From an uncultured Gemmatimonadota bacterium (GTDB lineage: Bacteria > GCA-2686955), in the NCBI GenBank assembly GCA_964490075.1, contig CAZBBK010000028.1, forward strand, positions 46,594 to 66,593: 20,000 bases of DNA, in the 5' to 3' direction. This document shows, piece by piece, positions 1 through 20,000 of this stretch (positions within the stretch are counted from its first letter, which is position 1; each line of letters opens with the position of its first letter). Both the position numbers and the translations under genes were made by a program. Below the pieces are notes generated by a model, which made no database searches, had not been told where the DNA came from, and worked only from the letters and a program-made list of their open reading frames with translations.

Positions 1-1113
1 GTGGGGCTGCTGGGCACTCTGCTCTACGACACCGGCAAGCGCCGCAGGGCCGCACCCCTGACAACACCCGATGCCCTGGAGCTGCAGAGCTTGCTGGCCG
101 AGATGGTGGAGGCCGGCTGTGACGCGGCGGTCCTGGAGGCCTCGTCGCACGGGCTCGATCTGCACCGGCTGGAAGGCTGCGACGTGCACGTCGGGGTCTA
201 TACCAACCTGAGTCGCGATCACCTGGACTACCACGGCTCCATGGAGCGCTACCGCGAGGTGAAGCTGCGACTGATCGACCAGGTGCGTCATTCCACCGGT
301 CCCTGGGACCGGGCGGTGGTCTACGATCGCGGCGTCGCCGCCTGGAGAACAATCCCCGAGCGTGCCGATCGGCTGCCCCTGGTGGTCTACGACTCGAGCG
401 CCGGGGAATGCTGCGAAGGGGCCTACTCGGTCTGCGCTCGGGGCGCCGACCTGCGGGGATCGACCTTCGCGCTGCACGGGCCCGATCTGCCGGCGGCCGG
501 GCTCGAGGGCCGTCTGCCGCTTCCGGGCCGCCACAATCTGGCCAATGCGCTGGCCGCCCTGAGCGCCTGCGTCGCCTGCGGACTCGATCCCGCGGCGTTG
601 GTCGCGGGCCTGGCCGAGTTCGGCGGCGTGCCGGGCCGGCTGGAGCCGGTGGCCGGGGGCGCCGGCACGCCGAGGGTGCTGGTCGACTACGCCCACACCC
701 CGGACGCCGTCGCCCGCGTGTTGCGCGAGCTGCGGCCCTTGGTGCCGGGTCGGCTGATCGCGGTATTCGGCTGCGGGGGAGACCGCGACCGCGGCAAGCG
801 GCCGGAGATGGGGCGCGCGGCGACCACCATCGCCGACCTCGCCATTCTCACCAACGACAATCCGCGCAGCGAGGATCCGCGGCGCATTGCAGACGATGTG
901 CTGGCGGGGGTGGAGGGAAGTTGCGAGCTGATCCTGGACCGTCGCGAGGCGATCGCCCGGGCGATCGACGCGGCGAGCCGGGAGGACGTCGTCGTGCTGC
1001 TCGGCAAGGGGCACGAGGACTACCAGATCGTGGGCAGCGAGCGGCGCGCCTTCGACGACCGCCAGGTCGCCGCGGCGCTGCTCGAGGCCCGCGCGGGGGA
1101 ATCGCAATCATGA
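1..1113 (+). CDS. murE: UDP-N-acetylmuramoyl-L-alanyl-D-glutamate:2,6-diaminopimelate ligase (5'-truncated by window edge)
   Basis: Motifs LTTPD, EASSHGL, TNLSRDHLDYH, VPGRLE, VDYAHTPDA, FGCGGDRDRGKRP, DNPRSEDP (DNPR = meso-DAP specificity motif) and GKGHEDYQ. The P-loop lies upstream of base 1. Confidence 0.97.
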   Translation: MGLLGTLLYDTGKRRRAAPLTTPDALELQSLLAEMVEAGCDAAVLEASSHGLDLHRLEGCDVHVGVYTNLSRDHLDYHGSMERYREVKLRLIDQVRHSTGPWDRAVVYDRGVAAWRTIPERADRLPLVVYDSSAGECCEGAYSVCARGADLRGSTFALHGPDLPAAGLEGRLPLPGRHNLANALAALSACVACGLDPAALVAGLAEFGGVPGRLEPVAGGAGTPRVLVDYAHTPDAVARVLRELRPLVPGRLIAVFGCGGDRDRGKRPEMGRAATTIADLAILTNDNPRSEDPRRIADDVLAGVEGSCELILDRREAIARAIDAASREDVVVLLGKGHEDYQIVGSERRAFDDRQVAAALLEARAGESQS

Positions 1114-1478
1114 TCGAGATCTTGATCGTTGACGACAGCCCGGAGATCCGCGCCTTCATGGGTGAATGCGTGGAGATGATGGGCATGCGGGCCACCGTGG
1201 CGGCGAGCGCCGGCGAGGCCCTGAGGCGGCTGGCGAGCCAGCCGGTCGACCTGGTCATCTCCGACCTGGCGATGCCCGGCATCGACGGCTGGGGACTGAT
1301 CGACCGCCTGCGCGGCGTGCATCCCGGTGTGCCGGTGGTGCTGATGAGCGGCTGGGATGTCGATCGCCGGCTGGCCCGCGCGCGCGGGGCCGCCGGTTGG
1401 CTCTCCAAGCCCTTTGGATACCGCGCGATGAAAGAGGCGATCCGTCCCTGGGTCGCCCTGGAGGAAGAGCTGGTATGA
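1110..1478 (+). CDS. Stand-alone CheY-like response regulator (single receiver domain, 122 aa)
   Basis: ATG at 1110 overlaps the murE stop (ATGA). ILIVDD acidic pocket (D8,D9), phosphoacceptor D52 in VISDLAMPGIDG, S80 in VVLMSG, K100 in WLSKPF. No output domain. Confidence 0.92.
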   Translation: MIEILIVDDSPEIRAFMGECVEMMGMRATVAASAGEALRRLASQPVDLVISDLAMPGIDGWGLIDRLRGVHPGVPVVLMSGWDVDRRLARARGAAGWLSKPFGYRAMKEAIRPWVALEEELV

Positions 1479-1684
1479 CCGCCGAACGATTCTACTGCGA
1501 CCGCAATGGACTGGTGGACCGGAGCGCCTGCGGGCTCTGCTTCGCGGCTGACGCGCAGCGCGCCGCCACCTACGTCACGCGAGCGATCTGCGCCTCGGCC
1601 CACGGCCGCTGGCTCGATGAAGGGCTCGTGACGCAACCGGCCCGAGTGCCGATCCTGATCCCGGTCGAGAGCCGGGTGGCCTGA
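1475..1684 (+). CDS. Small Cys-rich hypothetical protein (69 aa), possible Zn or Fe-S binder
   Basis: ATG at 1475 overlaps the regulator stop (ATGA), with SD-like GGAGGA at 1460-1465. Sequence MTAERFYCDRNGLVDRSACGLCF...AICASAHG... has pattern C8-x10-C19-x2-C22-x16-C39-x3-H43. The ORF exactly fills the gap up to the murF SD. Confidence 0.75.
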   Translation: MTAERFYCDRNGLVDRSACGLCFAADAQRAATYVTRAICASAHGRWLDEGLVTQPARVPILIPVESRVA

Positions 1685-1697: not shown

Positions 1698-3092
1698 GTG
1701 GCCTGGACCGTCGCCGAGATCGCCGCCATCGCCAGGGGCGTGGTGCTGCGCGGGGACGCGTCCGCGACCCTCACCGGTGTCAGCATCGACAGCCGGCGCG
1801 TGACCCCCGGTGATCTCTTCGTGGCTTTGCCGGGGGAACAGAGCGACGGCCACGACCACGTCGACGCGGCTCTGGCCGCCGGCGCGGTCGCGGCGTGCGT
1901 GCGTCATTCCTGGACGTCTCCGCACGCCGTGGAGGGGACGCTGCTCGGTGTCTCCGACCCGCTGGCGGCGCTGCAGAGCTGGGCCGAGGCCCACCTGCTG
2001 AGCCTGACAGCGCGCACCGTCGGTGTGACCGGCAGCAACGGCAAGACCACCACCAAGGACCTGGCGCGCGTCGCTCTCGGGGGCGGGGCGCGGATCGGTG
2101 CCACCCTCGGCAACTACAACAACCAGATCGGCCTGCCGCTCTCGATCCTGGCCATGGGGCCCGAGGTGCGGATCGCGGTGCTGGAGATGGGGATGTCGAC
2201 TCCCGGCGAGATCGCGCGCCTGGTCGAGATCGCCCCGCCGGAGGTGGCGGTGATCACCAACGTGGGGCCGGCCCACCTGGAGAGCCTGGGAAGCATCGAG
2301 GCGATCGCCCGCGCCAAGCTGGAGATCCTGAACCGCGCTCCGGCGCTCGCGCTGCTGCCCTGTGGCGCGCCGCGGCTGCTGGAACCGGCCCGCGAGCGGC
2401 TCGCCGCGGGACAGAGCCTGCGCACCTTCGGCACCCAGCCCGAGGCCGACTACCGGGCCACCGACATCGAGGCGACGGGCGCCGGGGGCACGCGCTTCCT
2501 GGTCAACGGCAAGGGGCCGGTCGAGCTGCCGATCTTCGGCGTCCACAACGTGTTGAACGCTCTGGCGGCGATCGCCGTCGCGGAGCGCATGGGGCGCGCC
2601 TGGGACGAGATCCGCGCCGCCCTGGCGGCGGCCTCGCCGGCGCCGATGCGCTCGGAGTGGAGGCGGATCGGCGCCCTGCGTCTGATCAACGACGCCTACA
2701 ACGCCAACCCCGCCTCGATGGTCGCGGCGATCAAGTCCCTGGCCGCCACGCCGGCCCAGGGGCGGCGAGTGCTGGTGCTCGGCGACATGTTGGAGCTCGG
2801 GCCGCGCGCCGCTGAGCACCATCGCAGCGTCGGCCTGGCCGCCGATTCCGCCGGCATCGATCTGCTGCTGACGGTGGGAGAGCGGGCGGCCGAGATCAGC
2901 GCCGCGGCGAGCCGTCTGAGCGGCGCCGGACAGGCCCATCATTTCGCAGCAATAGGCGCGGCCGCCGAGTTTCTGGCCGGAGCCGGCGCGGCCGGCGACC
3001 TGGTGCTGATCAAGGCCTCGCGCGGCATGGCCCTGGAGGGGCTGATCGACGAGCTGGCGCTGATTCTGGGCGCCCGCGAGGGGGACGACTGA
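1698..3092 (+). CDS. murF: UDP-N-acetylmuramoyl-tripeptide:D-alanyl-D-alanine ligase
   Basis: Motifs SIDSR, DGHD, VTGSNGKTTTKD, NYNNQIGLPL, LEMGM, AHLE, INDAYNANPASM, LGDMLELG, KASRG. Confidence 0.97.
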   Translation: MAWTVAEIAAIARGVVLRGDASATLTGVSIDSRRVTPGDLFVALPGEQSDGHDHVDAALAAGAVAACVRHSWTSPHAVEGTLLGVSDPLAALQSWAEAHLLSLTARTVGVTGSNGKTTTKDLARVALGGGARIGATLGNYNNQIGLPLSILAMGPEVRIAVLEMGMSTPGEIARLVEIAPPEVAVITNVGPAHLESLGSIEAIARAKLEILNRAPALALLPCGAPRLLEPARERLAAGQSLRTFGTQPEADYRATDIEATGAGGTRFLVNGKGPVELPIFGVHNVLNALAAIAVAERMGRAWDEIRAALAAASPAPMRSEWRRIGALRLINDAYNANPASMVAAIKSLAATPAQGRRVLVLGDMLELGPRAAEHHRSVGLAADSAGIDLLLTVGERAAEISAAASRLSGAGQAHHFAAIGAAAEFLAGAGAAGDLVLIKASRGMALEGLIDELALILGAREGDD

Positions 3093-6662: not shown

Positions 6663-7825
6663 TGCGGGTGCTCTTCGCCGGCGGCGGTACCGGAGGACAT
6701 GTCTACCCGGCCCTGGCGGTCGCCGAGTTCATGGCCGGCGCCGAGATGCTCTTCGTCGGCTCGCAGCGCGGAATCGAGGAGGGGATCGTGCGCGGTGCCG
6801 GTCTGGAGTATCGGGGTCTGCCGATCGAGGGGCTGCACCGGCGCCTGACGGCCGAAAATCTGTTGTTTCCGGTGCGCCTGGCGACGGCCCTGGCGGCGGC
6901 CTGGGCCCTGGTGCGTGCTTTTCGGCCGCAGGTGGTGCTGGGGACCGGCGGATTCGCCAGCGCTCCGCCGGTGCTGGCGGCGCAGCTGCGCGGGGTGCCG
7001 ACGCTGCTCCAGGAACAGAATGCCTATCCCGGAGTGACCACGCGGCTGCTGGCGCGGCGCGCATGCGAGGTGCACATCGCCTTCCAGGAGGCGGCGGCAC
7101 GGTTGCCGCGCAGCGCCGAAGCACGCACCCGGCTGACCGGCAATCCGGTGCGCGGCTCGCTGGTCGAGCGCCTTGGCGCTGCCGGCTCCCGCGCGCAGGG
7201 AGCGGCGGAGCGGCGCGCCGCGCGGGCACGAATCGAGGGGCTCGATGCCGACCTGCCGGTGGTTCTGGTGTTCGGCGGCAGCCAGGGCTCGCGCCTGCTC
7301 AATACCGCGCTGGCGGCCTTCCTGGAGGCGGGTCCGGATGCCGTGACGATCCCGTTCCAGATCCTCTGGGCCACCGGGCGCAAGCTCCACCAGGAGGTAC
7401 TGGAGCGTCAGCTTCCGGCCGAGCCGGCGCTGCCCGTGCAAGTGCGTCCCTACCTGGAGGAGATCTCGGTGGCCTATGCCGCGGCCGACCTGGTGGTTTG
7501 TCGGGCAGGGGCGATCACCTGCGCGGAGCTGGCCCTGGTCGGCCGGCCGGCGCTGCTGGTGCCGCTGGCGTCGGCGGCCGGCGACCACCAGGGCCACAAC
7601 GCAGCCGCCCTCGCCGGGGCCGGGGCGGCACGGATGCTGGAAGAGCGCCGGCTGCGCGAGGGCGCCGCCGGAGGCCGCGAGCTGGGGCGGATGATCGGCG
7701 AGCTGATGGCCGACCGTGCCGCGTTGGAGAGGATGGCGGGCGCCGCACGCGCCCTGGCACGCCCCGATGCCGCACGCACCATCTCGGAGCGGCTGCGGGC
7801 GCTGGCCGGAGGAGCGCGATCATGA
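6662..7825 (+). CDS. murG: Lipid I N-acetylglucosamine transferase (387 aa)
   Basis: ATG at 6662 (TGATG overlap, SD GAGGAG upstream). Motifs AGGGTGGHVYPA, GTGGFAS, EQNAYPG, TGNPVR, FGGSQG, RAGA, HQ..NA. Confidence 0.97.
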   Translation: MRVLFAGGGTGGHVYPALAVAEFMAGAEMLFVGSQRGIEEGIVRGAGLEYRGLPIEGLHRRLTAENLLFPVRLATALAAAWALVRAFRPQVVLGTGGFASAPPVLAAQLRGVPTLLQEQNAYPGVTTRLLARRACEVHIAFQEAAARLPRSAEARTRLTGNPVRGSLVERLGAAGSRAQGAAERRAARARIEGLDADLPVVLVFGGSQGSRLLNTALAAFLEAGPDAVTIPFQILWATGRKLHQEVLERQLPAEPALPVQVRPYLEEISVAYAAADLVVCRAGAITCAELALVGRPALLVPLASAAGDHQGHNAAALAGAGAARMLEERRLREGAAGGRELGRMIGELMADRAALERMAGAARALARPDAARTISERLRALAGGARS

Positions 7826-10254
7826 CCAGGGCAAGGCCGCGGACCTCGCCGCGCTCGCAGCGCACCCGCGCCGAGCACTCGCTCTTCGGCAGCGTGCGCC
7901 GCATCCACCTGGTGGGGATCGGCGGCACCGGCATGTGCGGCATCGCCGAAGTGTTGCTGAACCTCGGCTTCACCGTGACCGGCACCGACCTCGGCTCCAC
8001 CGAGGTGACGAATCGTCTCGAGGCGCTGGGTGCTCGCATCGCCCACGACCACCACAGTCCCCTGGTGCTCGACGCCGACGTTGTGGTGGTCTCGACGGCG
8101 ATTGGGCCGGACAACCCGGAGCTGCGGGCCGCGCGCGAGCGCGCGCTGCCGGTGATTCGCCGTGCCGAGATGCTGGCGGAGCTGATGCGTATGAAGCGCG
8201 GCATCGCCGTCGGTGGTTCGCACGGCAAGACCACCGTCAGCTCCATGGCCGGCGGGGTGCTGATCGAAGGTGGGCTCGATCCGACCGTGGTGGTGGGGGG
8301 GCGGGTCAAGCGCCTGGGGTCGAACGCGCGGGTCGGCGCCGGCGACACCATGGTGGTGGAGGCCGACGAGTCGGACGGTACTTTTCTGCACCTACAGCCG
8401 ACGATCGCGATCGTCACCAACATCGACTGGGAGCACGTCGACTACTACGCCGACCTCGACCAGACCCTGGACGCCTTCGTCCACTTCGCCAACGGTGTTC
8501 CCTTCTACGGCGCCGTGGTCCTTTGCCTGGACGATCCCAACGCGCGGCTGGCGATTCCACGCATCACGCGCCGCATCCTGACCTACGGGCTGGAGCCGGG
8601 CGCCGACCTGGTGGCGACCAAGGTGCGCGCCATCGAGGGCGGCTCGCGTTTCGAGCTGGTGTGGCAGGGCGACACCCTGGGAAGCTGCGATCTGGCGGTT
8701 CCCGGAAGACACAATATCGCCAACGCGCTGGCCGCCGCCACCGTGGGGCTCGAGCTGGGCCTCGACGCCGCCGACATCTTTCGCGGGCTGGAGAGCTTCT
8801 CCGGAGTGGCGCGCCGCCTGGAGCGTCGCGGAGAGAGCCGAGGGGTGGTGGTCTACGACGACTATGCGCACCACCCGCGCGAAATCGAAGCGACGCTGCG
8901 GGCCCTTCGCGAGCAGTGGCCCGGACGCGTGGTGGCGGTGTTTCAGCCGCACCGTTACAGCCGGGCGGAAGCCCTGGCGGACGACTTCGGTCGCTCCTTC
9001 TACGGCGCCGACAGCCTGATCGTGGTGCCGATCTACCCCGCCGGCGAAGAGCCGCGAGAGGGGATCGACGCCTCGATGTTGGCCGGCAAGTGTCGCGCTT
9101 ATGGCCACAAAGACGTGCACCTGGCCGACGATCTCGAGGCCGCCGCGGCGACCTTGGCGGCCAGCGCTGCGGCCGGCGACCTGGTGATCACCTTGGGGGC
9201 CGGATCGGTGTGGCGGGTCGGGTCGACGCTCCTGGAGCTGCTCGCGCGCCAGCCGGCGGCGAGCGTCGCTTCCGGCGGCGAGGGAAGCGCCGCGGCACCC
9301 GCGGTGCATGCCCCTTCGGCCGACGCACGCGCCCTGGTGGCCGATCTCGAGGGAGAGGCGCTGCCAGAGCATTCTCTGGAACGGTGCACCTCGCTGCGCC
9401 TCGGGGGACCCGCCGAAGTGCTCTTCGTGCCGGCATCCGCCGCTGCCGCCGCCGAGGCGATCAGCCGCGCACTGGCCGCCGAGCTGCCGGTGACGACGAT
9501 CGGAGGCGGCACCAATCTGCTGATCGCCGAGCGCGGCGTGCGCGGCCTGGTTCTGTCGCTGGGTGGGGCATTCCGCGGCATCTCGATCGAAAGCGAGGCC
9601 CGGGTGCTATGTGGCGCCGCGGCGCCGCTGGCGAAGGTCATGCGCGACACTCTGCGCGCCGGACTGGTGGGCATGGAGCCACTGGCCGGAGTACCCGGTT
9701 CGCTGGGAGGGGCGCTGGTCATGAACGCCGGAACGCGCGACGGAGAGATCGGCGATCTGGTGGTGGCGGTGCGCGGTGTCGATGCCGCCGGTCGCCTGGT
9801 CGAGGTGGCCGGAAATGATCTCGCCTTCGGCTATCGTCGCTCCGCCGTGGCCGAGCTCGGTCTCACCCTGCTCGAAGTGGAGCTGGCACTGGAGGAGGGA
9901 GATTCGGCGGCGGCACTGGAGCGAGCCCGCGAGCTGCGCGATTATCGCAACGCCACCCAGCCGCACAAAGTGCGCTCCGCCGGCTCGGTGTTCAAGAATC
10001 CGCCCGGCGACGCCGCCGGCAGGTTGATCGATTCCTGTGGACTCAAGAGCTCGACCCTCGGCGGGGCGCGGGTATCGCCGGTCCATGCCAACTTCCTGGT
10101 GGCCGAGACGGGCTGCTCCTCGCGACACATGGCGCGCCTGATCGAACGCTGCCGGCGCGCGGTCTGGAAGCAGCACGGCATCGCCTTGGAGCTGGAGATC
10201 CGACCCCTGGGCTTCGCCGCCGGCGAGCTGCCCCCGACCTGGAGCGGGCGATGA
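7822..10254 (+). CDS. murC-murB: Fused UDP-N-acetylmuramate:L-alanine ligase (MurC) / UDP-N-acetylenolpyruvoylglucosamine reductase (MurB), 810 aa
   Basis: ATG at 7822 (ATGA overlap, SD GGAGGAG). MurC motifs GIGGTGM, GSHGKTT, EADESDGTF, TNIDWEH, DDYAHHP, FQPHRYSR, LGAG. An Ala/Gly/Pro/Ser linker at ~9250-9330 has no stop. MurB motifs follow: GGPA, GGGTNLL, GVPGSLGGALVMNAG, FGYR, QP...SAGSVFKNP, HANF, LELE. Confidence 0.93.
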   Translation: MTRARPRTSPRSQRTRAEHSLFGSVRRIHLVGIGGTGMCGIAEVLLNLGFTVTGTDLGSTEVTNRLEALGARIAHDHHSPLVLDADVVVVSTAIGPDNPELRAARERALPVIRRAEMLAELMRMKRGIAVGGSHGKTTVSSMAGGVLIEGGLDPTVVVGGRVKRLGSNARVGAGDTMVVEADESDGTFLHLQPTIAIVTNIDWEHVDYYADLDQTLDAFVHFANGVPFYGAVVLCLDDPNARLAIPRITRRILTYGLEPGADLVATKVRAIEGGSRFELVWQGDTLGSCDLAVPGRHNIANALAAATVGLELGLDAADIFRGLESFSGVARRLERRGESRGVVVYDDYAHHPREIEATLRALREQWPGRVVAVFQPHRYSRAEALADDFGRSFYGADSLIVVPIYPAGEEPREGIDASMLAGKCRAYGHKDVHLADDLEAAAATLAASAAAGDLVITLGAGSVWRVGSTLLELLARQPAASVASGGEGSAAAPAVHAPSADARALVADLEGEALPEHSLERCTSLRLGGPAEVLFVPASAAAAAEAISRALAAELPVTTIGGGTNLLIAERGVRGLVLSLGGAFRGISIESEARVLCGAAAPLAKVMRDTLRAGLVGMEPLAGVPGSLGGALVMNAGTRDGEIGDLVVAVRGVDAAGRLVEVAGNDLAFGYRRSAVAELGLTLLEVELALEEGDSAAALERARELRDYRNATQPHKVRSAGSVFKNPPGDAAGRLIDSCGLKSSTLGGARVSPVHANFLVAETGCSSRHMARLIERCRRAVWKQHGIALELEIRPLGFAAGELPPTWSGR

Positions 10255-11162
10255 GACGCGTCAAGAAAGCGCGGCGAACCATGCAGATGCAAACGATGGC
10301 GCGGCCGCGGCGCCCCGCGCGGCGCCGGATCTCTGCGCCGGCGAATCCCCTGCGGCGCCTCGCGCGACTCCCCGCGCGCCTGCCCCCAGCGCTGCGCAGG
10401 GCGGCGGCGGCGGCGTGCGCGCTCGTGCTGCTGGCGGCTGCTCTGGGAGCCGCGGCCGATGCCGCCTCCGAGCCTCTGCGGGCGGAGCTGCACGACGCAG
10501 CCTGGCTGAGGGTGCGCGGAATCGCGGTGCGCGGAACCTGCACTCTGAACCCGGAGCAAGTGCGGGCCGCCCTGCCCGGCGTGACCGGCACCCATATCTT
10601 CGTCGCCAACTGCGACAGTCTCGCGGAGCGGGTGGAAGGAATCGAGCGCGTGCTCAGTGCACGCGTGACTCGCAATCTGCTGCTTCGTAGAATCGATGTT
10701 TGCGTCGAGGAACGGACCGCGGTAGCATTGGCGCTCGATGCCGCGGGACGCCCGCAGGAAATCGACGCCACCGGAGTTTTTTTGCCGATCGATCCCGACC
10801 GAGTAGAACGAGATCTGGTGTTCCTCGTCGGCACCGCGGAAGGTGGTGTCGCCGGAATCGAGGCCGGTTTGGCGGTGATCCAGGCGCTGCGCGTGCGGGG
10901 ACTCGAAGTGTTGCTGAGTGAGCTCGACGTCTCCGATCCGGCCTTCCCGGTCGGTGTCGAAGTCGCGACCGGTACCCGGGTCGAGTTTTCCGATCGCTAC
11001 CCCGCCGCGCGCCAGGCCGAGCACCTGGCGGTGGTGCTGCAGACGATCGGAGAGAAGAACCTGATCCCCGAGCGAATCGATTTGCGTTTCCCGGGTCTGG
11101 TCGAGGTCATCCCGAAGAATCAGGCGGACGGGCCCCCGCCCGCGCGCCAGGAGAGGGGGTGA
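10251..11162 (+). CDS. ftsQ: Cell division protein FtsQ/DivIB
   Basis: Basic cytoplasmic N-terminus, one hydrophobic helix (AACALVLLAAALGA), a POTRA-like segment (LRVRGIAVRG...EQV), VEER and C-terminal IDLRF. Located before ftsA. The start could be a later ATG. Confidence 0.85.
   Translation: MRRVKKARRTMQMQTMARPRRPARRRISAPANPLRRLARLPARLPPALRRAAAAACALVLLAAALGAAADAASEPLRAELHDAAWLRVRGIAVRGTCTLNPEQVRAALPGVTGTHIFVANCDSLAERVEGIERVLSARVTRNLLLRRIDVCVEERTAVALALDAAGRPQEIDATGVFLPIDPDRVERDLVFLVGTAEGGVAGIEAGLAVIQALRVRGLEVLLSELDVSDPAFPVGVEVATGTRVEFSDRYPAARQAEHLAVVLQTIGEKNLIPERIDLRFPGLVEVIPKNQADGPPPARQERG
10665..10693 (+). promoter_or_regulatory. Candidate internal sigma70-type promoter within ftsQ (for ftsA-ftsZ)
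   Basis: GTGACT (10665-10670), 17-nt spacer, TAGAAT (10688-10693): 4/6 and 5/6 matches to TTGACA/TATAAT. Built from codons unusual for this GC-rich DNA (CTT CGT AGA). Confidence 0.45.
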
Positions 11163-13852: not shown

Positions 13853-14086
13853 ATGCCCGGAACGCGGACCAGCCGACCCCGACGCCTGCTCTTCGCTCTG
13901 CTCGCGATGCTCTCGAGCCTCGCGGCACTCGAAGGCGGGGCGCGGCTGGTCGCGCGGCGGATCCCCATCGCCGGTCTCGACGCCGATCCCTTCTTCGGCT
14001 TCTTCGGCTTCCAGACCTTCTTCGAGGCGCTGCCCTCCGCCGCTGACAGCCTGCGCACTCGCCCGGCCATGTCGACGATTCGATGA
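13853..14086 (+). CDS. 77-aa membrane-anchor ORF; probably the frameshift-separated N-terminus of the downstream SGNH protein
   Basis: Basic N-terminus, hydrophobic helix (LLFALLAMLSSLAALEGGARL) and DPFFGF, resembling the anchor segment that typically precedes RIxCLGxS in membrane-tethered SGNH proteins. Its stop overlaps the next ATG. Confidence 0.65.
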   Translation: MPGTRTSRPRRLLFALLAMLSSLAALEGGARLVARRIPIAGLDADPFFGFFGFQTFFEALPSAADSLRTRPAMSTIR

Positions 14087-16692
14087 TGCGCGACCTGCGC
14101 TTCGCGCGTCGGGCGCCCAAGGAGCGCATGCGCATCGTCTGCCTGGGCGGCTCGGTGACCCGCGCCGAGTACCCCTTCTACATGGCCGACTATCTCGGCG
14201 GTGAGGTGGGCCACCCGGGAGTCGATCCCCCGCCTCCCTTCGACTCGATCGAGCTCATCAACTCCGGCTTCGGCGGCATGGGATCGACCCGGGTGATGCT
14301 CCTGATGCGCGAGATCCTGGGCTACGACCCCGATCTGATCGTCCTCTCCTCGGGCCACAACGAGTTTCTCGAACGCAACTTCTACCGTCCCCTGCTGGAG
14401 CGCAGCCCCTGGCTTCTGCGCCTGCAGGCTCTCTTCTATCGCAGCACCGCCGCGCGCCTGGCGCGGGTCGCGCTGCGCGCCCTGCGCGACACCTACGGCG
14501 GCTTCGAGCACGAGTCGGTCTCGCCCCTCTATCTCGACATGGAGAACCGCCCCTTCGTGGATCCGCGGCCCACGGCGGACGCTTCTTTCTGCGATCCGGT
14601 GCTGCTCAACTACACACGCAATCTGCTGGCCATGGTCGAAATGGCCCGCGAGCGCGGCGTGGCGCTGGTGCTGGCCACCCTGCCGACCCACCTGGCGGTC
14701 AATTCCGGGTTTCTGCGTCCCTACTGGCCCGATCCCTCGCGGCCTCCGATCGAGACCCCCTGGGCGGGGGACCGCAACGCGATCGGCCACGAGGTCGACG
14801 TGGCGGTGGCTCTGAACCTGCTGGCCGAGGGCCGCGCCGCGCCGGCCCTGTCCCGGATCGACGCGCTGCCCGACGACCTGGCGCGGCATCCGATGGTGCC
14901 GGTGTGGCGGGCGGAATGCCTCGATTCGCTCGGGCGCGGCGACCGGGCCTGGGCCGCGCGCTTCGAAGCGCTGCGCCGGACCACTCCCGCCGGCGATCGC
15001 AGCCTCCAGAACATCGCCATCCGAATCGCCGCACGCCTCGGCGGCGCGCCGGTGATCGATGTGGTGCGCGGAATGCGCCGCGCCGGAGAGGCGATGGGCG
15101 ATCCACTGCACGAGTTTCTCTGGGGAGACAGTGTGCACCCGGCCTTCAGCGGCTACGCGACCATGGGGGAGGCGGCCGCTCGCGACATCGAGGCCTGGTG
15201 GGCAAGGGGCGGCACCATGCCGGCCGCCGGCTCCGGCTTCCGCCCCGGCCCGGAGCGAGACCGACGGCTGCGGGCCGCGCTGGCCGCGGCGATCGACCCC
15301 TGCGCGGAATCCGAGAGCTGGTTCGCCGATCCCGATCCGCTGATCCGCGAGGCCGCCGCCTGGGGAGCCGGCTCCCCGCTCTGCGCCTGCGGCGACCGCG
15401 TTCTCAGCCGGCTCGCGGCTGCCGAGGCCGATCCCGGAGTGCGGATCGCCCTGCTCACCAGCGCGGCGGTGCGCGCCCACCCCGCGGCCGCGGCTCTGGT
15501 GCTCGACGCCCTCGAATCGGATGTCGAAGCCCTACACCTGGCGGCGATCCGGGCCGCAGGACTGGCCCGGCTCGAAGAGCTGGCCCCCGAGCTTCACGCC
15601 CGGCTCGTCGCTCCGGATGCCAGCGCGGCCGAGCAGGCCGAGCTGCTCTGGGCACTGGGGAGGATCGGCAGCGCGCCCGATCCCGCCCCGCTGCGGGACT
15701 TCTGCCGCGCCCATCTCGATCGAGGCTGCGACGCCCAGGTGGCCGCCGCGGCCTGCTTCGCCCTGGGCCGCATCGCATGCGAAGACGCGGCGGTGTTGCT
15801 GGAAGCGATGCTCGATCATCCCCACCCCTCGGTGGTCACCAACGCCCTCTGGGCACTGGCGGTGCTCGCCGGGGACGGGCTCCGCGTGGTCCCCGGGGTG
15901 CTGAGCGCCGCCGCGCCGCAGAACTGCAACGCTCCCCCGCGTCGGGCGAGGCTCGAAGCGAACTGGCACCCTCAGCTCGCGACCCGCGTCGCAGGGCTGG
16001 TCGCCAACCCCTGGCCGCCGATCGCCAGCGCCGCGGTGTCGCTCCTGGCACGGCTGCCGCGGCGGGCCGGTCTGGAGGCGCTGCTGCGCCATCCCGAGCT
16101 CGCGTCCCGGGAAGGGGTCGTCGAGCTCTACCTGGCCGAGCTCGCCGATCTGGTCGGTCCGGCCGATGCGGATGCACTGCGGCGCCTTGCGCGCACCGCG
16201 CCGGCCCACTTCTTGCCCCTGTTGGCGCTGGTCGATCCAGAGGCCGCGCTCGCCCTGGGCGGCACCGAGGCGGTCTGGAACGAGTGGAGCGTCACCGTGT
16301 CCAGGGCCCGCGCCGGCGATCGCGATGCGCTCGAGCGGATCCACCGCGATCTGCGGGAGCAGACGACGCCCGGAGCCGCACCGGTCGGCTCCCATCGGCC
16401 CGAGACGGCCTGGCAGATCGAGGCGTTGGGGATCTGCGGCGCTGAATCACACGCCCAGGTGTTGCGCCGCATCCTGCGCGACTCCCGGGTGACGGTCGAC
16501 ATCCAGGAGCCGGCGGCGACCGCCCTGGGGCGCATCGGCGACCGCGCCTGGCTCTCCGACTTGCCGGCCGTGCTGCCGGAAGGCGGCTTGCACCTCAGGA
16601 TCGCGGTGGCGCGGGCGCTCCTGCGCAGGAACGACGAAACCGAGGTCCGAGACCTCTTCGAGCGCTCGCTCGGGGCCGGTCCGAGTCCATGA
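14083..16692 (+). CDS. SGNH/GDSL hydrolase-fold protein with TPR-like insertion and C-terminal HEAT/PBS-lyase-like repeats
   Basis: Block I RIVCLGGS, block II INSGFGG, block III DLIVLSSGHNEF, block V DSVHP. HEAT-like units follow, e.g. DPDPLIREAAAW, LLWALGRIG, ACFALGRIA, LDHPHPSVVTNALWAL, AATALGRIG. Confidence 0.8.
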   Translation: MMRDLRFARRAPKERMRIVCLGGSVTRAEYPFYMADYLGGEVGHPGVDPPPPFDSIELINSGFGGMGSTRVMLLMREILGYDPDLIVLSSGHNEFLERNFYRPLLERSPWLLRLQALFYRSTAARLARVALRALRDTYGGFEHESVSPLYLDMENRPFVDPRPTADASFCDPVLLNYTRNLLAMVEMARERGVALVLATLPTHLAVNSGFLRPYWPDPSRPPIETPWAGDRNAIGHEVDVAVALNLLAEGRAAPALSRIDALPDDLARHPMVPVWRAECLDSLGRGDRAWAARFEALRRTTPAGDRSLQNIAIRIAARLGGAPVIDVVRGMRRAGEAMGDPLHEFLWGDSVHPAFSGYATMGEAAARDIEAWWARGGTMPAAGSGFRPGPERDRRLRAALAAAIDPCAESESWFADPDPLIREAAAWGAGSPLCACGDRVLSRLAAAEADPGVRIALLTSAAVRAHPAAAALVLDALESDVEALHLAAIRAAGLARLEELAPELHARLVAPDASAAEQAELLWALGRIGSAPDPAPLRDFCRAHLDRGCDAQVAAAACFALGRIACEDAAVLLEAMLDHPHPSVVTNALWALAVLAGDGLRVVPGVLSAAAPQNCNAPPRRARLEANWHPQLATRVAGLVANPWPPIASAAVSLLARLPRRAGLEALLRHPELASREGVVELYLAELADLVGPADADALRRLARTAPAHFLPLLALVDPEAALALGGTEAVWNEWSVTVSRARAGDRDALERIHRDLREQTTPGAAPVGSHRPETAWQIEALGICGAESHAQVLRRILRDSRVTVDIQEPAATALGRIGDRAWLSDLPAVLPEGGLHLRIAVARALLRRNDETEVRDLFERSLGAGPSP
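15319..16630 (+). repeat. Degenerate protein-level HEAT/ARM-like helical repeat region
   Basis: Roughly 8-9 recurring L-x-D-x-x-x-x-V/I-R-x-x-A-x-x-A-L-G-R-I-like units in the translation. No DNA-level tandem identity. Confidence 0.7.
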
Positions 16693-19085
16693 GGTTGCAT
16701 CCCGGGGCCTCCCGAATCCTCGCGCACGCCACGTTCTTTCTGCTCTCGGCGCTCCTGGTGCTGGCGGCACCCGATCTGGTCGGCTGGGGCGACGCGCTCG
16801 CGCCCCGGACCCGGGCCGGCGACGTGGTCGACCCGGAGATCGAGGTGCGTGGCGAGGTCGGCTGGCGCAAGGGCCTCTTCGAGCTGAACGCCTCCAACAG
16901 CCTGGTGCACCAGGGCGGAATCGAGGCGCCGGGAGGCCTGCGCCTGCGCTTGGAGCGGGGCCGCGGGGCCGGTCAGCTGCGCGTCGAGTTCGCCGCCGGG
17001 GCGGCAACCCGCTACGCCTGTGTCCTGCACGCCGATCCCGAACAAGGCGGCGTGTTCGCCGGCGACGAGCGTCTGCTGGGACCCTTTCGCTTCGACTCGA
17101 TGCGCGATCCGGGTGGCACCGGCAAGCGCGCGCTCCGGTTTCGCCAGCTGGTCGTGGAGGTCTCCGAGGACGGGGTCGTGCGAGCCTCGGTCGACGGCCG
17201 GCCGGCCGGATCGGCGCCGGCGCCGCTGCCGATCGAGCGCGGGATCCTCGAGATCGAGGCGCCCCGCGACCCCCACTACAGCGGGTTCCACTTCGCCTCC
17301 GCGACCCTCGGCGACGGGCGGCAGGAGCTGCGCGTGGCGGCCGGATTCGCCCCGCTGATCGACCTGCGTTTCGGTCCCTGCGGAAGCTGGCAGCGGCCGA
17401 CCCAGTGGCTCGTCGCCCTCGCGCTCCTGGCGGTCTGGGCGGCGCTCCTCGAGTCGGCTCTGGACCGGGTCGCTGGAGCGCGCCGCGATCGCCGCCGGGC
17501 GCTGCGCTTCCTCCTGCTGCCGACGTTCTGGGCGCTGCTCTACGCCTTCGCCGAGCTCCTGGCGCTGCCGCGCAACATGGCGCTGGTCCATGGTGCCGTG
17601 ATCGGCGTCGCCCATCTGCTACGGGCCGTCGATCTCACCTTCGCGCGCGGTGCCCGGTCGCTCGGGGGGCCCGCGGCCGCGCTCGGCGGAGGATTGGCGC
17701 TGGCGGCCGCCACCCTCTGGCTGATGGCCCAGGGCTCGAGCTCGGTCTGGTACGAGCCGGCGATCCCCACCACGACCAGCCCATGGTGGACTCCGGCGCT
17801 GGCGCTGGTCGCCTGCGCCGGGTTGCTCGGCAGCCGGTCCTATCCGCTCGGGACCTTCGCGTTCTTCGCGCCACAGGGTCTGCACTGGCTGTGGCTCACG
17901 CGCCTGCATCCCGATCCCAACGCGACGATCTTCCTCGCGGTCGCGCTGCTGCCCTGGATCGCCTTCAGCGCGCTGCGCATCGCGGCCCGGCCGCGCCGGC
18001 CGCGTCTGTTGATGCTGCTGGTGGCGCTGGTTCCCATGGCGGTGGCGCTGGTGGCGTTCGAGCTCTGCCTCAGGCAGCCCTTCAAGCGCTTCGAGGAGCT
18101 GGAATACGATGCCTTCGCGGTCGCCAAGTCGTGGCGAATCCGCGAGCACACCAATCTGCTGGGATCTTGGGACGGCGTCCCCAGCGCACAGCTCCGCGGC
18201 CGCTGCCACCCTCTCGAGCCCGATCCCGAGGTGCCGCGCATCGTCTGCCTGGGCAGCTCGTCCACCGCCGCCTCGGGGCTTCCGCCGGCCTCGCCCGACG
18301 CCTACCCGGCCCAGCTCGAGGCTCGGCTGCGGGCGCGGCTGGGGCGTGAGGTCGAGGTGCTGAACGGCGGGATTCCCGGTGCCGGCCTCTACATGATCCG
18401 TGTCTACCTCGAGGAGGTGCTGCTGCGCTTCCGGCCCGACCTGGTGGTGCTCTACTTCGGCGCCAACCGCGAGCTGCCGGAGAACCGCCTCTTCTACTGG
18501 CGGATGCGGGAGCTCCTCCAGCGCCACCCGTGGATCGAGTCGGGGGAGGAGCTGGCCGCCGCGATGGAGCTGCGTTTCCTCTCCCCCTCGCTGCTGCACG
18601 CCTACATGGCCGGGCTGCGCTGGCGGGTGGTCTACGGCCTGCGGCTGCTGGTCAACGCCGCGCTCGATCGCGGCCAGCAAGGGCGGGGCGATCCTCGGGC
18701 GCGCGCGGCCGTCGAGGCCTTCCTGGGTGGGGACCGGGCCAAGCCCCACAAGAGCGCCGACGAGATCGCCGAGCATTGCCTGCTCGCCGGCGTGCCGCTG
18801 GTGCTGGTTCCCGAGATCACCTGGAGCAGTCAGACCGGCTCCGGCGACGGCCACGACTATCGCCCGATCTTCCTGCGGGTGGCCGATTCCCATGGCCCCG
18901 AGGTGGAGACGCTCTGGCCCATCGGGCTCTTCCCGCGCGACGCATTGGAGCGCTGCATGAACGACGAGGTCCACCTCTCGCCGCGGGGCTACGGCCTGTT
19001 GGCGGAGTGGCTGGCGGACGAGCTGATCGCGGGCGGTTGGATCGAGCTACAACCGATACGCGAGCCGCAGGCTCAGCTCCCGTGA
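16689..19085 (+). CDS. Multi-pass membrane protein with C-terminal SGNH/GDSL hydrolase domain
   Basis: ATGA overlap with the previous gene. N-terminal hydrophobic segment, a soluble beta-rich region, then about 8 hydrophobic helices, then SGNH blocks RIVCLGSS, VLNGGIPG, DLVVLYFGAN and DEVHLS. Confidence 0.8.
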   Translation: MRLHPGASRILAHATFFLLSALLVLAAPDLVGWGDALAPRTRAGDVVDPEIEVRGEVGWRKGLFELNASNSLVHQGGIEAPGGLRLRLERGRGAGQLRVEFAAGAATRYACVLHADPEQGGVFAGDERLLGPFRFDSMRDPGGTGKRALRFRQLVVEVSEDGVVRASVDGRPAGSAPAPLPIERGILEIEAPRDPHYSGFHFASATLGDGRQELRVAAGFAPLIDLRFGPCGSWQRPTQWLVALALLAVWAALLESALDRVAGARRDRRRALRFLLLPTFWALLYAFAELLALPRNMALVHGAVIGVAHLLRAVDLTFARGARSLGGPAAALGGGLALAAATLWLMAQGSSSVWYEPAIPTTTSPWWTPALALVACAGLLGSRSYPLGTFAFFAPQGLHWLWLTRLHPDPNATIFLAVALLPWIAFSALRIAARPRRPRLLMLLVALVPMAVALVAFELCLRQPFKRFEELEYDAFAVAKSWRIREHTNLLGSWDGVPSAQLRGRCHPLEPDPEVPRIVCLGSSSTAASGLPPASPDAYPAQLEARLRARLGREVEVLNGGIPGAGLYMIRVYLEEVLLRFRPDLVVLYFGANRELPENRLFYWRMRELLQRHPWIESGEELAAAMELRFLSPSLLHAYMAGLRWRVVYGLRLLVNAALDRGQQGRGDPRARAAVEAFLGGDRAKPHKSADEIAEHCLLAGVPLVLVPEITWSSQTGSGDGHDYRPIFLRVADSHGPEVETLWPIGLFPRDALERCMNDEVHLSPRGYGLLAEWLADELIAGGWIELQPIREPQAQLP

Positions 19086-20000
19086 GGGGCCGGGGATGGG
19101 GGCGTGGCCGCTGTCGTAGGGCTGGATAAAGGTGTGGCCGGAGTCGAGGAGGTCGTGAACGCCCAGGCCGAGGTCGAGGCCCGGCGCGAAGAGATCGCGA
19201 CGATTGACGAAGAGGTCGAGCAGCAGCAGCGAGGGCTGTGCTTCGAGCGCCGCGCCGCCCTGACCGTCGCCGTGCAGGAAGCCGTAGCGCTCGCTGAGCC
19301 AGACCGCGCTGGGATCGAGCGTCATATTGACGCCCTCGAGCCGGAGCTGGGCGCGCAGCGCGAGCTTGTGGGCCGGGAAGCCGAGCAGTAGCTCGGGATG
19401 GCCCGCGACCGTGTAGATCTCGGCGCGGTTCGCGCCGCGCGCGCTGTAGAACGAGTAGCCGAGGTCCGCGCGCAGCCAAGGCGCCTGAATCCGCCAGTCC
19501 AGCTCGAAGCCGCGCGACCCGGTACGCGCGAAGTTGCGGTAGGTGTCGGCGTCGTTCAGCTCGTCGTAGAAGTAGATGATCGGGTTGTCGATGCTGATGT
19601 CGAAGCCGGTGGCGGTGAACATCATCTCGCGACCCAGCTCGTAGGTCACCGCCAACTCGAAGACGCTGGTCCGCTCCGGCTCGATCTCCACCCCCGACAG
19701 GATGTTCTCGACACCCGGGGCGCGGAAGGCGCGGTTGTAGAACGCCTTCAGGTGCAGTCTCTCGATCGAGCGCGTGAGACCGATGCGCGGCACCAGGGAG
19801 GAGCCGGCCTGGCTGTTGACCTCGTGGCGCAGCCCCGCCGTCAGGTTGGCGAGTGGATGATCGAGGAGCAGCTCGGCGAAGGCGGCGGCGTTGTGGTAGC
19901 GCTCTTCGCCCGCCTCCACGAAGTGCTCCGCGCCGACCTCCCCCGCGGTGTCGCGCAGCTCGGCGCGATCGGTGAAGCCCTCGAAGCCCACGCTTAGCTG
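19047..20000 (-). CDS. TonB-dependent outer-membrane receptor, C-terminal beta-barrel part (5' end outside window)
   Basis: Frame is open to base 20000. Motifs LTAGLR, AFRAP, IEPERTSVFEL, SRGFELD, LGVHDLLD and a C-terminal beta-signal-like PGPSRELSLRLAYRL. Confidence 0.88.
   Translation of the reverse strand, partial: QLSVGFEGFTDRAELRDTAGEVGAEHFVEAGEERYHNAAAFAELLLDHPLANLTAGLRHEVNSQAGSSLVPRIGLTRSIERLHLKAFYNRAFRAPGVENILSGVEIEPERTSVFELAVTYELGREMMFTATGFDISIDNPIIYFYDELNDADTYRNFARTGSRGFELDWRIQAPWLRADLGYSFYSARGANRAEIYTVAGHPELLLGFPAHKLALRAQLRLEGVNMTLDPSAVWLSERYGFLHGDGQGGAALEAQPSLLLLDLFVNRRDLFAPGLDLGLGVHDLLDSGHTFIQPYDSGHAPIPGPSRELSLRLAYRL

Follow-up and report, generated by a model that had tools for sequence, protein, structure and literature searches.

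Two genes, one encoding a stand-alone receiver (REC) domain protein and the other a small protein with four cysteines (Cys4), lie between murE and murF in the cluster of genes for division and the cell wall (dcw) of an uncultured Gemmatimonadota bacterium. The stretch analysed, referred to below as the window, comprises 20,000 nucleotides of contig CAZBBK010000028.1. The dcw cluster is among the most conserved gene arrangements of bacteria; within it, murE normally neighbours murF. The receiver and Cys4 pair is best explained as a vertically inherited, two-gene dcw insertion that is restricted to one small phylum. All five genomes of the phylum carry the small protein, which makes it the invariable part of the pair. 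In the simplest history the receiver is an ancestral element that can be lost, found in four of the five and lost in the line leading to the remaining one. As to function, it is tentatively proposed, at a likelihood somewhat short of even, that the Cys4 mini-protein folds around a metal and partners an enzyme encoded in the dcw cluster, MurE and MurF being the likeliest candidates, with the receiver as an optional and losable phospho-input.

Arrangement of the murE-murF stretch

The reading frames of the window confirm the order murE, receiver, small Cys4 open reading frame (ORF) and murF, all on the forward strand. The 3′ part of murE (1–1113) encodes 370 amino acids within the window and matches the Pfam domains Mur_ligase_M (E 1.5e-31) and Mur_ligase_C (E 1e-32); the 5′ start of the gene lies outside the window, about 400 nt upstream, and upstream starts of this ORF are visible in locus L031. 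The murE stop codon (TGA, 1111–1113) forms an ATGA overlap (1110–1113) with the start of the receiver gene (1110–1478, PF00072), which encodes 122 amino acids and no output domain. A second ATGA (1475–1478) joins the receiver stop to the start of the small ORF (1475–1684), which encodes a 69-residue Cys4 protein of an orphan family, as supported by alignments, homologs and the ratio of non-synonymous to synonymous substitution rates (dN/dS). Its stop codon (TGA, 1682–1684) abuts the GGAGG Shine-Dalgarno (SD) sequence of murF (1685–1689). The murF gene (1698–3092) has a GTG start at 1698 and encodes 464 amino acids, with matches to Mur_ligase_M (E 3e-41), Mur_ligase_C (E 2.5e-20) and Mur_ligase (E 1e-09). 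The gene order around the insertion is canonical for a dcw cluster, with murE, murF, mraY, murD, ftsW, murC and murB domains, ftsQ, ftsA and ftsZ all on the forward strand. An initial annotation of the window had described these coordinates, both ATGA overlaps, the stop codon abutting the murF SD, the four cysteines and residue D52 of the receiver, and all of them hold on the sequence.

The lack of a separate promoter or terminator and of mobile-element scars, also proposed in that annotation, is borne out. Simple consensus scans of positions 800–2000 returned no sigma-70-like promoter and no intrinsic-terminator-like site, and no Rfam families were found in the window. GC content is even, at 0.69–0.73 across the cassette versus 0.67–0.78 in its surroundings. 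The sole flanking repeat is a 30-nt imperfect direct repeat of 77% identity (916–945 and 1685–1714), with one copy within the 3′ part of murE and the other across the ribosome-binding site and start of murF; it is probably a chance occurrence in GC-rich DNA. The even GC content and the lack of a promoter- or terminator-like site fit an old, operon-integrated insertion.

Two other readings were considered and rejected: a mobile element or recent transfer, on the grounds of the even GC content, the single weak repeat and a gene order conserved across two families, and a defence system, since the only PADLOC matches are generic, receiver-level ones with E 0.0013 or weaker. The stretch is contained in four DNA runs of one marine study, with no RNA dataset among those listed.

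Conservation and history of the insertion

The genome collection searched holds five species genomes of the phylum, G000 to G004; the first four belong to one family, and G004 to another family of the same class. MurF identity between the two families is 41%. The small ORF lies directly upstream of murF in all five genomes, with one copy in each and never elsewhere, and in four of them (G000, G002, G003 and G004) the receiver separates it from murE. The complete order with the same two ATGA junctions occurs in G000, G002 and G003, and a GGGAGG directly after the small-ORF stop is also kept in G002 and G003. In G004 the last 26 nt of murE overlap the receiver, and a separate GGAGG precedes the small ORF. 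The arrangement in G001 is shorter: murE is joined through an ATGA straight to the small ORF on one contig (L004, 1440–1760), and the receiver is missing at this place. The rest of the 83% complete G001 assembly yielded no ortholog-level receiver either, its best match, at 73 bits, being at paralog background. The MurF of G001 is also the most divergent of its family, at 53% identity versus 67–68%. Because the receiver is present in G004 as well as in the other family members, and because G001 has the most divergent MurF, the simplest history is a single ancestral insertion of both genes followed by one loss of the receiver.

These results bear on how the locus was first described. The cassette is no one-off insertion, as it occurs in the dcw clusters of relatives, in full in four of the five genomes and with the small ORF in all five. 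The proposal of a two-gene cassette stands in that the genes are conserved, dcw-embedded and translationally coupled; it fails in that the two are not an obligate pair, as G001 keeps the small ORF only. A scan of genome contigs returned just the three known relatives.

The receiver

The receiver matches PF00072 with an E-value of 5.5e-23 and 81.7 bits (cut-off 30.2), its residues 4–112 covering profile positions 1–111 of 111, and has no other match worth mention in Pfam. The polypeptide is limited to the 122 residues between the murE stop and its own stop, and the called orthologs have 122–125 residues. Residues D8, D9, D52, K100 and P101 are invariant among the four orthologs, and position 80 is serine in three of them and threonine in G004. 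The roles of D8, D9, D52, S80 and K100 are assigned from CheY numbering, which we take to apply here. Having a complete acid pocket, phospho-acceptor aspartate, Ser/Thr and lysine, the receiver looks able to be phosphorylated, and since it has no output domain, it would act only by binding other proteins. By its sequence it is a stand-alone, single-domain response regulator and an ordinary member of the receiver superfamily.

Like CheY, DivK, CpdR and Spo0F, the receiver consists of one domain of about 120 residues with a full phospho-acceptor pocket and without an output domain. Single-domain regulators of this type act via protein-protein contacts. The window receiver differs from them in being encoded in a dcw cluster, between murE and murF, and in falling outside the specific NCBIfam families: no NCBIfam model came near its cut-off, with CpdR (NF046022) at 52.3 bits versus 180, and no DivK model stands among the best 25 listed of 98 NCBIfam matches. 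The analogy to DivK and CpdR drawn in the initial annotation finds no support in the sequence, as the CpdR score shows, and the organism lies outside the Alphaproteobacteria.

Profile scores set the dcw receiver apart from its paralogs. The dcw copies reach 238–257 bits in the family and, in G004, 101 bits, whereas the paralogs stay at or below about 76 bits; in G004 the next best receiver reaches 70.5 bits. The genomes are rich in such domains, with 47 receiver-type matches at E<=1e-10 in G000. GC content at third codon positions (GC3) is 0.87 in the receiver versus 0.92 in murF, and dN/dS within the family is 0.16–0.26, a rough estimate with dS near saturation. One database variant that is 99% identical to the window receiver (P0020) carries tyrosine in place of aspartate at acid-pocket residue 9; this may reflect variation within the population or a fault in the assembly.

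The small Cys4 protein

The small ORF has exactly four cysteines, C8, C19, C22 and C39, with the spacing C-x10-C-x2-C-x16-C. A profile built from four homologs was scored against 1.84 billion representative proteins and returned six small proteins of 66–81 residues at E<=1e-8, the other matches being repetitive or long chance ones. Among 5.8 billion proteins the family comprises 11 clusters, all of 66–81 residues, none with a Pfam domain and with ‘hypothetical protein’ as the only name given. In the 11-row alignment M1, F6, C8, G12, C19, C22, F23, R36 and C39 are invariant, so that all four cysteines are kept in 11 of 11 members. The conserved domain spans about 45 residues at the start, and the tail is variable, ending in (R/K)-V-A in most members. 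In four family genomes (positions 1676–1684 of the window and loci L002, L003 and L004) the C-terminal R-V-A is written with different codons (CGG/CGA, GTG/GTC/GTT and GCC/GCA); its preservation through synonymous changes points to a constraint on the peptide and not on overlapping murF signals. Two metagenomic relatives, P0005 and P0006, share the R-V-A ending, and P0009 has K-V-A. This C-terminal motif may be a functional tag. Within the family, dN/dS over the first 45 codons is 0.14–0.37, again a rough value with dS near saturation, and GC3 (0.84) exceeds GC content at second codon positions (GC2, 0.57). The receiver and the small ORF are real coding genes under purifying selection.

Searches for a described relative of the small protein gave chance-level or no matches. 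Pfam returned only Barwin (E 0.098) and, in one of the 11 members, RYYR-CCHC (E 0.013); NCBIfam and PADLOC gave no match. A sequence profile search of the PDB returned chance matches only, at E 0.003 or weaker (OspA, flavocytochrome c3), and the ESM Atlas gave no usable match. Among 8000 candidates, no longer or fused form appeared at E<=0.01, a negative that carries little weight. The WhiB pattern is C-Xn-C-X2-C-X5-C; none of the 11 members, all of which were tried, matched Whib (PF02467) at E<=10, and their last spacing is x16, not x5. As judged from these comparisons, the small protein is a member of a very rare orphan family, outside any described family.

Structure prediction was of limited help. 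The AlphaFold2 model built on the 11-row alignment has a mean pLDDT of 56, falling below 50 from residue 44 on. This low-confidence model places C8 in a hairpin (5–15), C19 and C22 in a helix (16–24) and C39 in a second helix (36–42), with a disordered tail. With it, Foldseek against the PDB gave 0 matches and a wide VIA-align search reached a best Z of 2.3; these failed fold searches do not make the fold new. A complex prediction of the receiver, zinc and the small protein scored 0.00 (mark 0.32) with the small-protein fold uncertain, and speaks neither for nor against binding. The simplest reading of four invariant cysteines in a 45-residue domain without another stabilising core would be that they are metal ligands.

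Outside the phylum and metagenomic relatives

Outside the phylum, the pair was searched for at the murF loci of other genomes. Among 296 genomes sampled, 239 outside the phylum had a MurF match, and the loci of the 26 best matches were examined. murE lies directly upstream of murF in 23 of these 26, and in 21 of the 23 the two alignments are at most about 160 nt apart; in the other two the gap widens to about 340 nt, and the remaining three loci have other genes upstream of murF. No receiver or small-ORF match at E<=1e-3 was present at any of the 26 loci, and a single-sequence search of 36 other genomes with the small protein gave nothing better than E 0.056. The two wide gaps belong to unrelated genomes: that of L040 (2844–3249, minus strand, genome G278) holds an unrelated 112-aa ORF, and in that of L061 (2871–3244) no ORF reaches 32 aa.

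In the protein database, the receiver search returned five strong clusters at 175–224 bits, followed by a drop to 109 bits. The longest contigs listed for these five clusters pair in length with those of small-ORF clusters (17845, 27043, 58300 and 37371 nt), although such matching of lengths is a weak guide to gene context. The receiver P0022 and the small ORF P0017, which both list a longest contig of 37371 nt, are likely a further co-located pair. P0035, a metagenomic receiver of 140 residues, has the dcw copy as its best match in four of the five genomes searched (G000, G002, G003 and G004); it lists the same 1274-nt contig size as the small protein P0009 but from a different source, so that their adjacency is conjectural. 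Two scans of metagenome contigs found no confirmed locus.

Comparison with described systems

Searches of full-text literature found no counterpart of this arrangement, neither a receiver nor a small Cys protein being described in the murE-murF gap, though supplementary tables of large dcw synteny surveys might record such insertions. The suggestion that the system is undescribed is thus upheld to that extent.

ReoM/IreB and CwlM are small controllers of MurA, through which a phosphorylation signal is passed to an early cell-wall enzyme. They work with Ser/Thr kinases and target MurA, and their genes lie elsewhere than between murE and murF. The likeness to the window proteins is one of concept only, that of a small cytoplasmic protein relaying phosphorylation to a cell-wall enzyme, and the window proteins have no homology to them.

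A nearer parallel is offered by MurT, a Mur-ligase-type enzyme in which a zinc-ribbon-like insertion of about 50 residues with a Cys tetrad contributes to the GatD interface (PMC6085368). This tetrad is in cis, in paired CxxC knuckles at 205/208 and 227/230, and forms two disulfides in crystals (PMC6085368). The small protein of the window is alike in being a four-Cys mini-domain of similar length (about 50 residues) with a putative tie to a Mur-ligase-type enzyme, and differs in being a separate 69-aa protein with the spacing C-x10-C-x2-C-x16-C. No similarity between the small protein and the MurT insertion was found by sequence or fold.

MurE-MurF fusions and scaffolds, as in Bordetella pertussis, are reported to indicate that the two ligases gain from being held close together (PMC6420597). 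By analogy, a small linker or adaptor made between the ligases could serve the same end. The window differs from the fusions in that its ligases are separate, with two extra genes between them.

Proposed function and alternative explanations

The explanation tentatively favoured here is that of a metal-folded Cys4 partner of a Mur ligase with a losable receiver input. Through the ATGA-coupled placement, receiver and small protein are expected to be made from the murE-murF message: ribosomes ending murE can reinitiate first on the receiver and next on the small ORF, before loading on murF. The four invariant cysteines would hold a metal ion, most likely zinc, folding the 45-residue domain. This mini-domain would bind another product of its operon, with MurE and MurF as the likeliest candidates because both flank the small ORF in every genome, and would tune or scaffold the late cytoplasmic steps of peptidoglycan-precursor synthesis. 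The receiver, phosphorylated by an orphan kinase, would add a signal input to that step. The Cys-tetrad interface of MurT and GatD speaks in favour as a precedent (PMC6085368).

A number of points weigh against this explanation. Gene position is the sole tie of either protein to peptidoglycan synthesis or division. The arrangement is carried by only five genomes of one lineage, and such kin are not independent. Since G001 has no receiver, the two proteins need not work together, and with 47 receivers in G000 the chance landing and keeping of one in the operon is not far-fetched. The poor AlphaFold2 model (mean pLDDT 56) leaves metal binding and the fold inferential, and the small protein has one CxxC only (C19/C22). 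Classical zinc ribbons have paired CxxC...CxxC motifs, unlike C-x10-C-x2-C-x16-C. A phospho-, redox- or metal-sensing role, as suggested when the cassette was first described, is conjecture.

The first alternative, rather unlikely in our view, is that the two genes are hitch-hikers, brought in by a single ancestral insertion and kept for steady, growth-linked expression, with targets unrelated to the cell wall or division. That position is the only link to the cell wall fits this explanation, as do the murE-murF insertions seen elsewhere (the unrelated 112-aa ORF in L040 and the gap of about 340 nt in L061), the abundance of receivers in these genomes and the loss of the receiver from an operon that G001 has otherwise kept. 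It has to contend with an order and ATGA coupling kept across two families whose MurF proteins are 41% identical, and with a small ORF that stays exactly between murE and murF even without the receiver, in single copy in each genome and with none elsewhere.

Less likely again is that the two genes have independent functions, the Cys4 protein acting constitutively in the structure or assembly of a Mur ligase and the receiver being an unrelated signalling branch or a phosphate sink. The small ORF without a receiver in G001 is in line with this, and receiver matches at E<=1e-20 share no longest contig with the small-protein clusters P0005, P0006 and P0008, which is weak evidence. The adjacency and coupling of the genes in four of five genomes from two families argue for a connection, as does the 37371-nt longest contig listed by both P0022 and P0017.

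A closer connection between the proteins, in which two-component signalling is plugged into precursor synthesis and the Cys4 protein, gated by the receiver, would regulate MurE or MurF or serve either as an adaptor in a stoichiometric and metal-dependent way, is quite doubtful. If such gating existed, control of Cys4 protein stability is one possible route, as the non-polar (R/K)-V-A ending recalls C-terminal protease tags.

A redox or Fe-S sensor, in which the cysteines would form a disulfide switch or a WhiB-like cluster so that precursor synthesis answers to the oxidative state, is improbable. The CxxC among the four invariant cysteines would suit such a sensor, and so would the MurT Cys tetrad seen as two disulfides in crystals (PMC6085368). 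None of the 11 members has a Pfam match to Whib, Fe-S or thioredoxin-like families at E<=10, and no Fe-S assembly or thiol-redox genes were present among the window ORFs scanned against Pfam. The cysteine spacing is also unlike the WhiB pattern C-Xn-C-X2-C-X5-C.

Finally, that the small ORF is no gene at all, being a chance GC-rich frame or a spacer with murF translation signals, is close to refuted: GC-rich DNA does yield long spurious ORFs, such as a 312-aa antisense frame at 848–1786 and a 172-aa frame at 1166–1684, but homologs with invariant residues are found in five of five genomes and 11 database clusters, dN/dS is well below 1 with GC3 of 0.84 over GC2 of 0.57, the start is ATGA-coupled or, in G004, preceded by GGAGG, and the C-terminal residues are kept through synonymous changes.

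Other genes of the window

Further along the cluster, MurC domains (Mur_ligase, Mur_ligase_M and Mur_ligase_C) and MurB domains (FAD_binding_4 and MurB_C) share a single frame that no stop interrupts (7825–10254, forward strand), which suggests a MurC-MurB fusion protein. The same frame is uninterrupted in G003, where it covers residues 6–808 of 809 with no stops; in G004 murC and murB are on separate contigs. The ddl gene is often located between murB and ftsQ. In the window ftsQ (10251–11162) directly follows the MurB domain, and no Ddl domain is reported between them. After ftsZ, two large proteins of 869 and 798 residues are encoded on the forward strand (14083–19085), with HEAT repeats and matches to GDSL-like lipase/acylhydrolase, and a fragment of a TonB-dependent receptor lies on the minus strand (19047–19991).

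Significance

The lineage is uncultured and comes from marine metagenomes, with five genomes carrying the arrangement, and every functional statement about it is inferred. To our knowledge, very little is known about post-translational regulation of the last cytoplasmic Mur ligase steps. A receiver and an orphan Cys4 protein kept phylum-wide in the murE-murF gap suggest lineage-specific control of these last cytoplasmic ligase steps. Should the small protein prove to bind a Mur ligase, it would be a natural ligand or regulator of an enzyme class that is an antibiotic target, and this would provide the first function for a new small-protein family. If the Cys4 protein should prove to be a receiver-gated regulator, it would represent a new class of Mur ligase control together with a new small-protein family.

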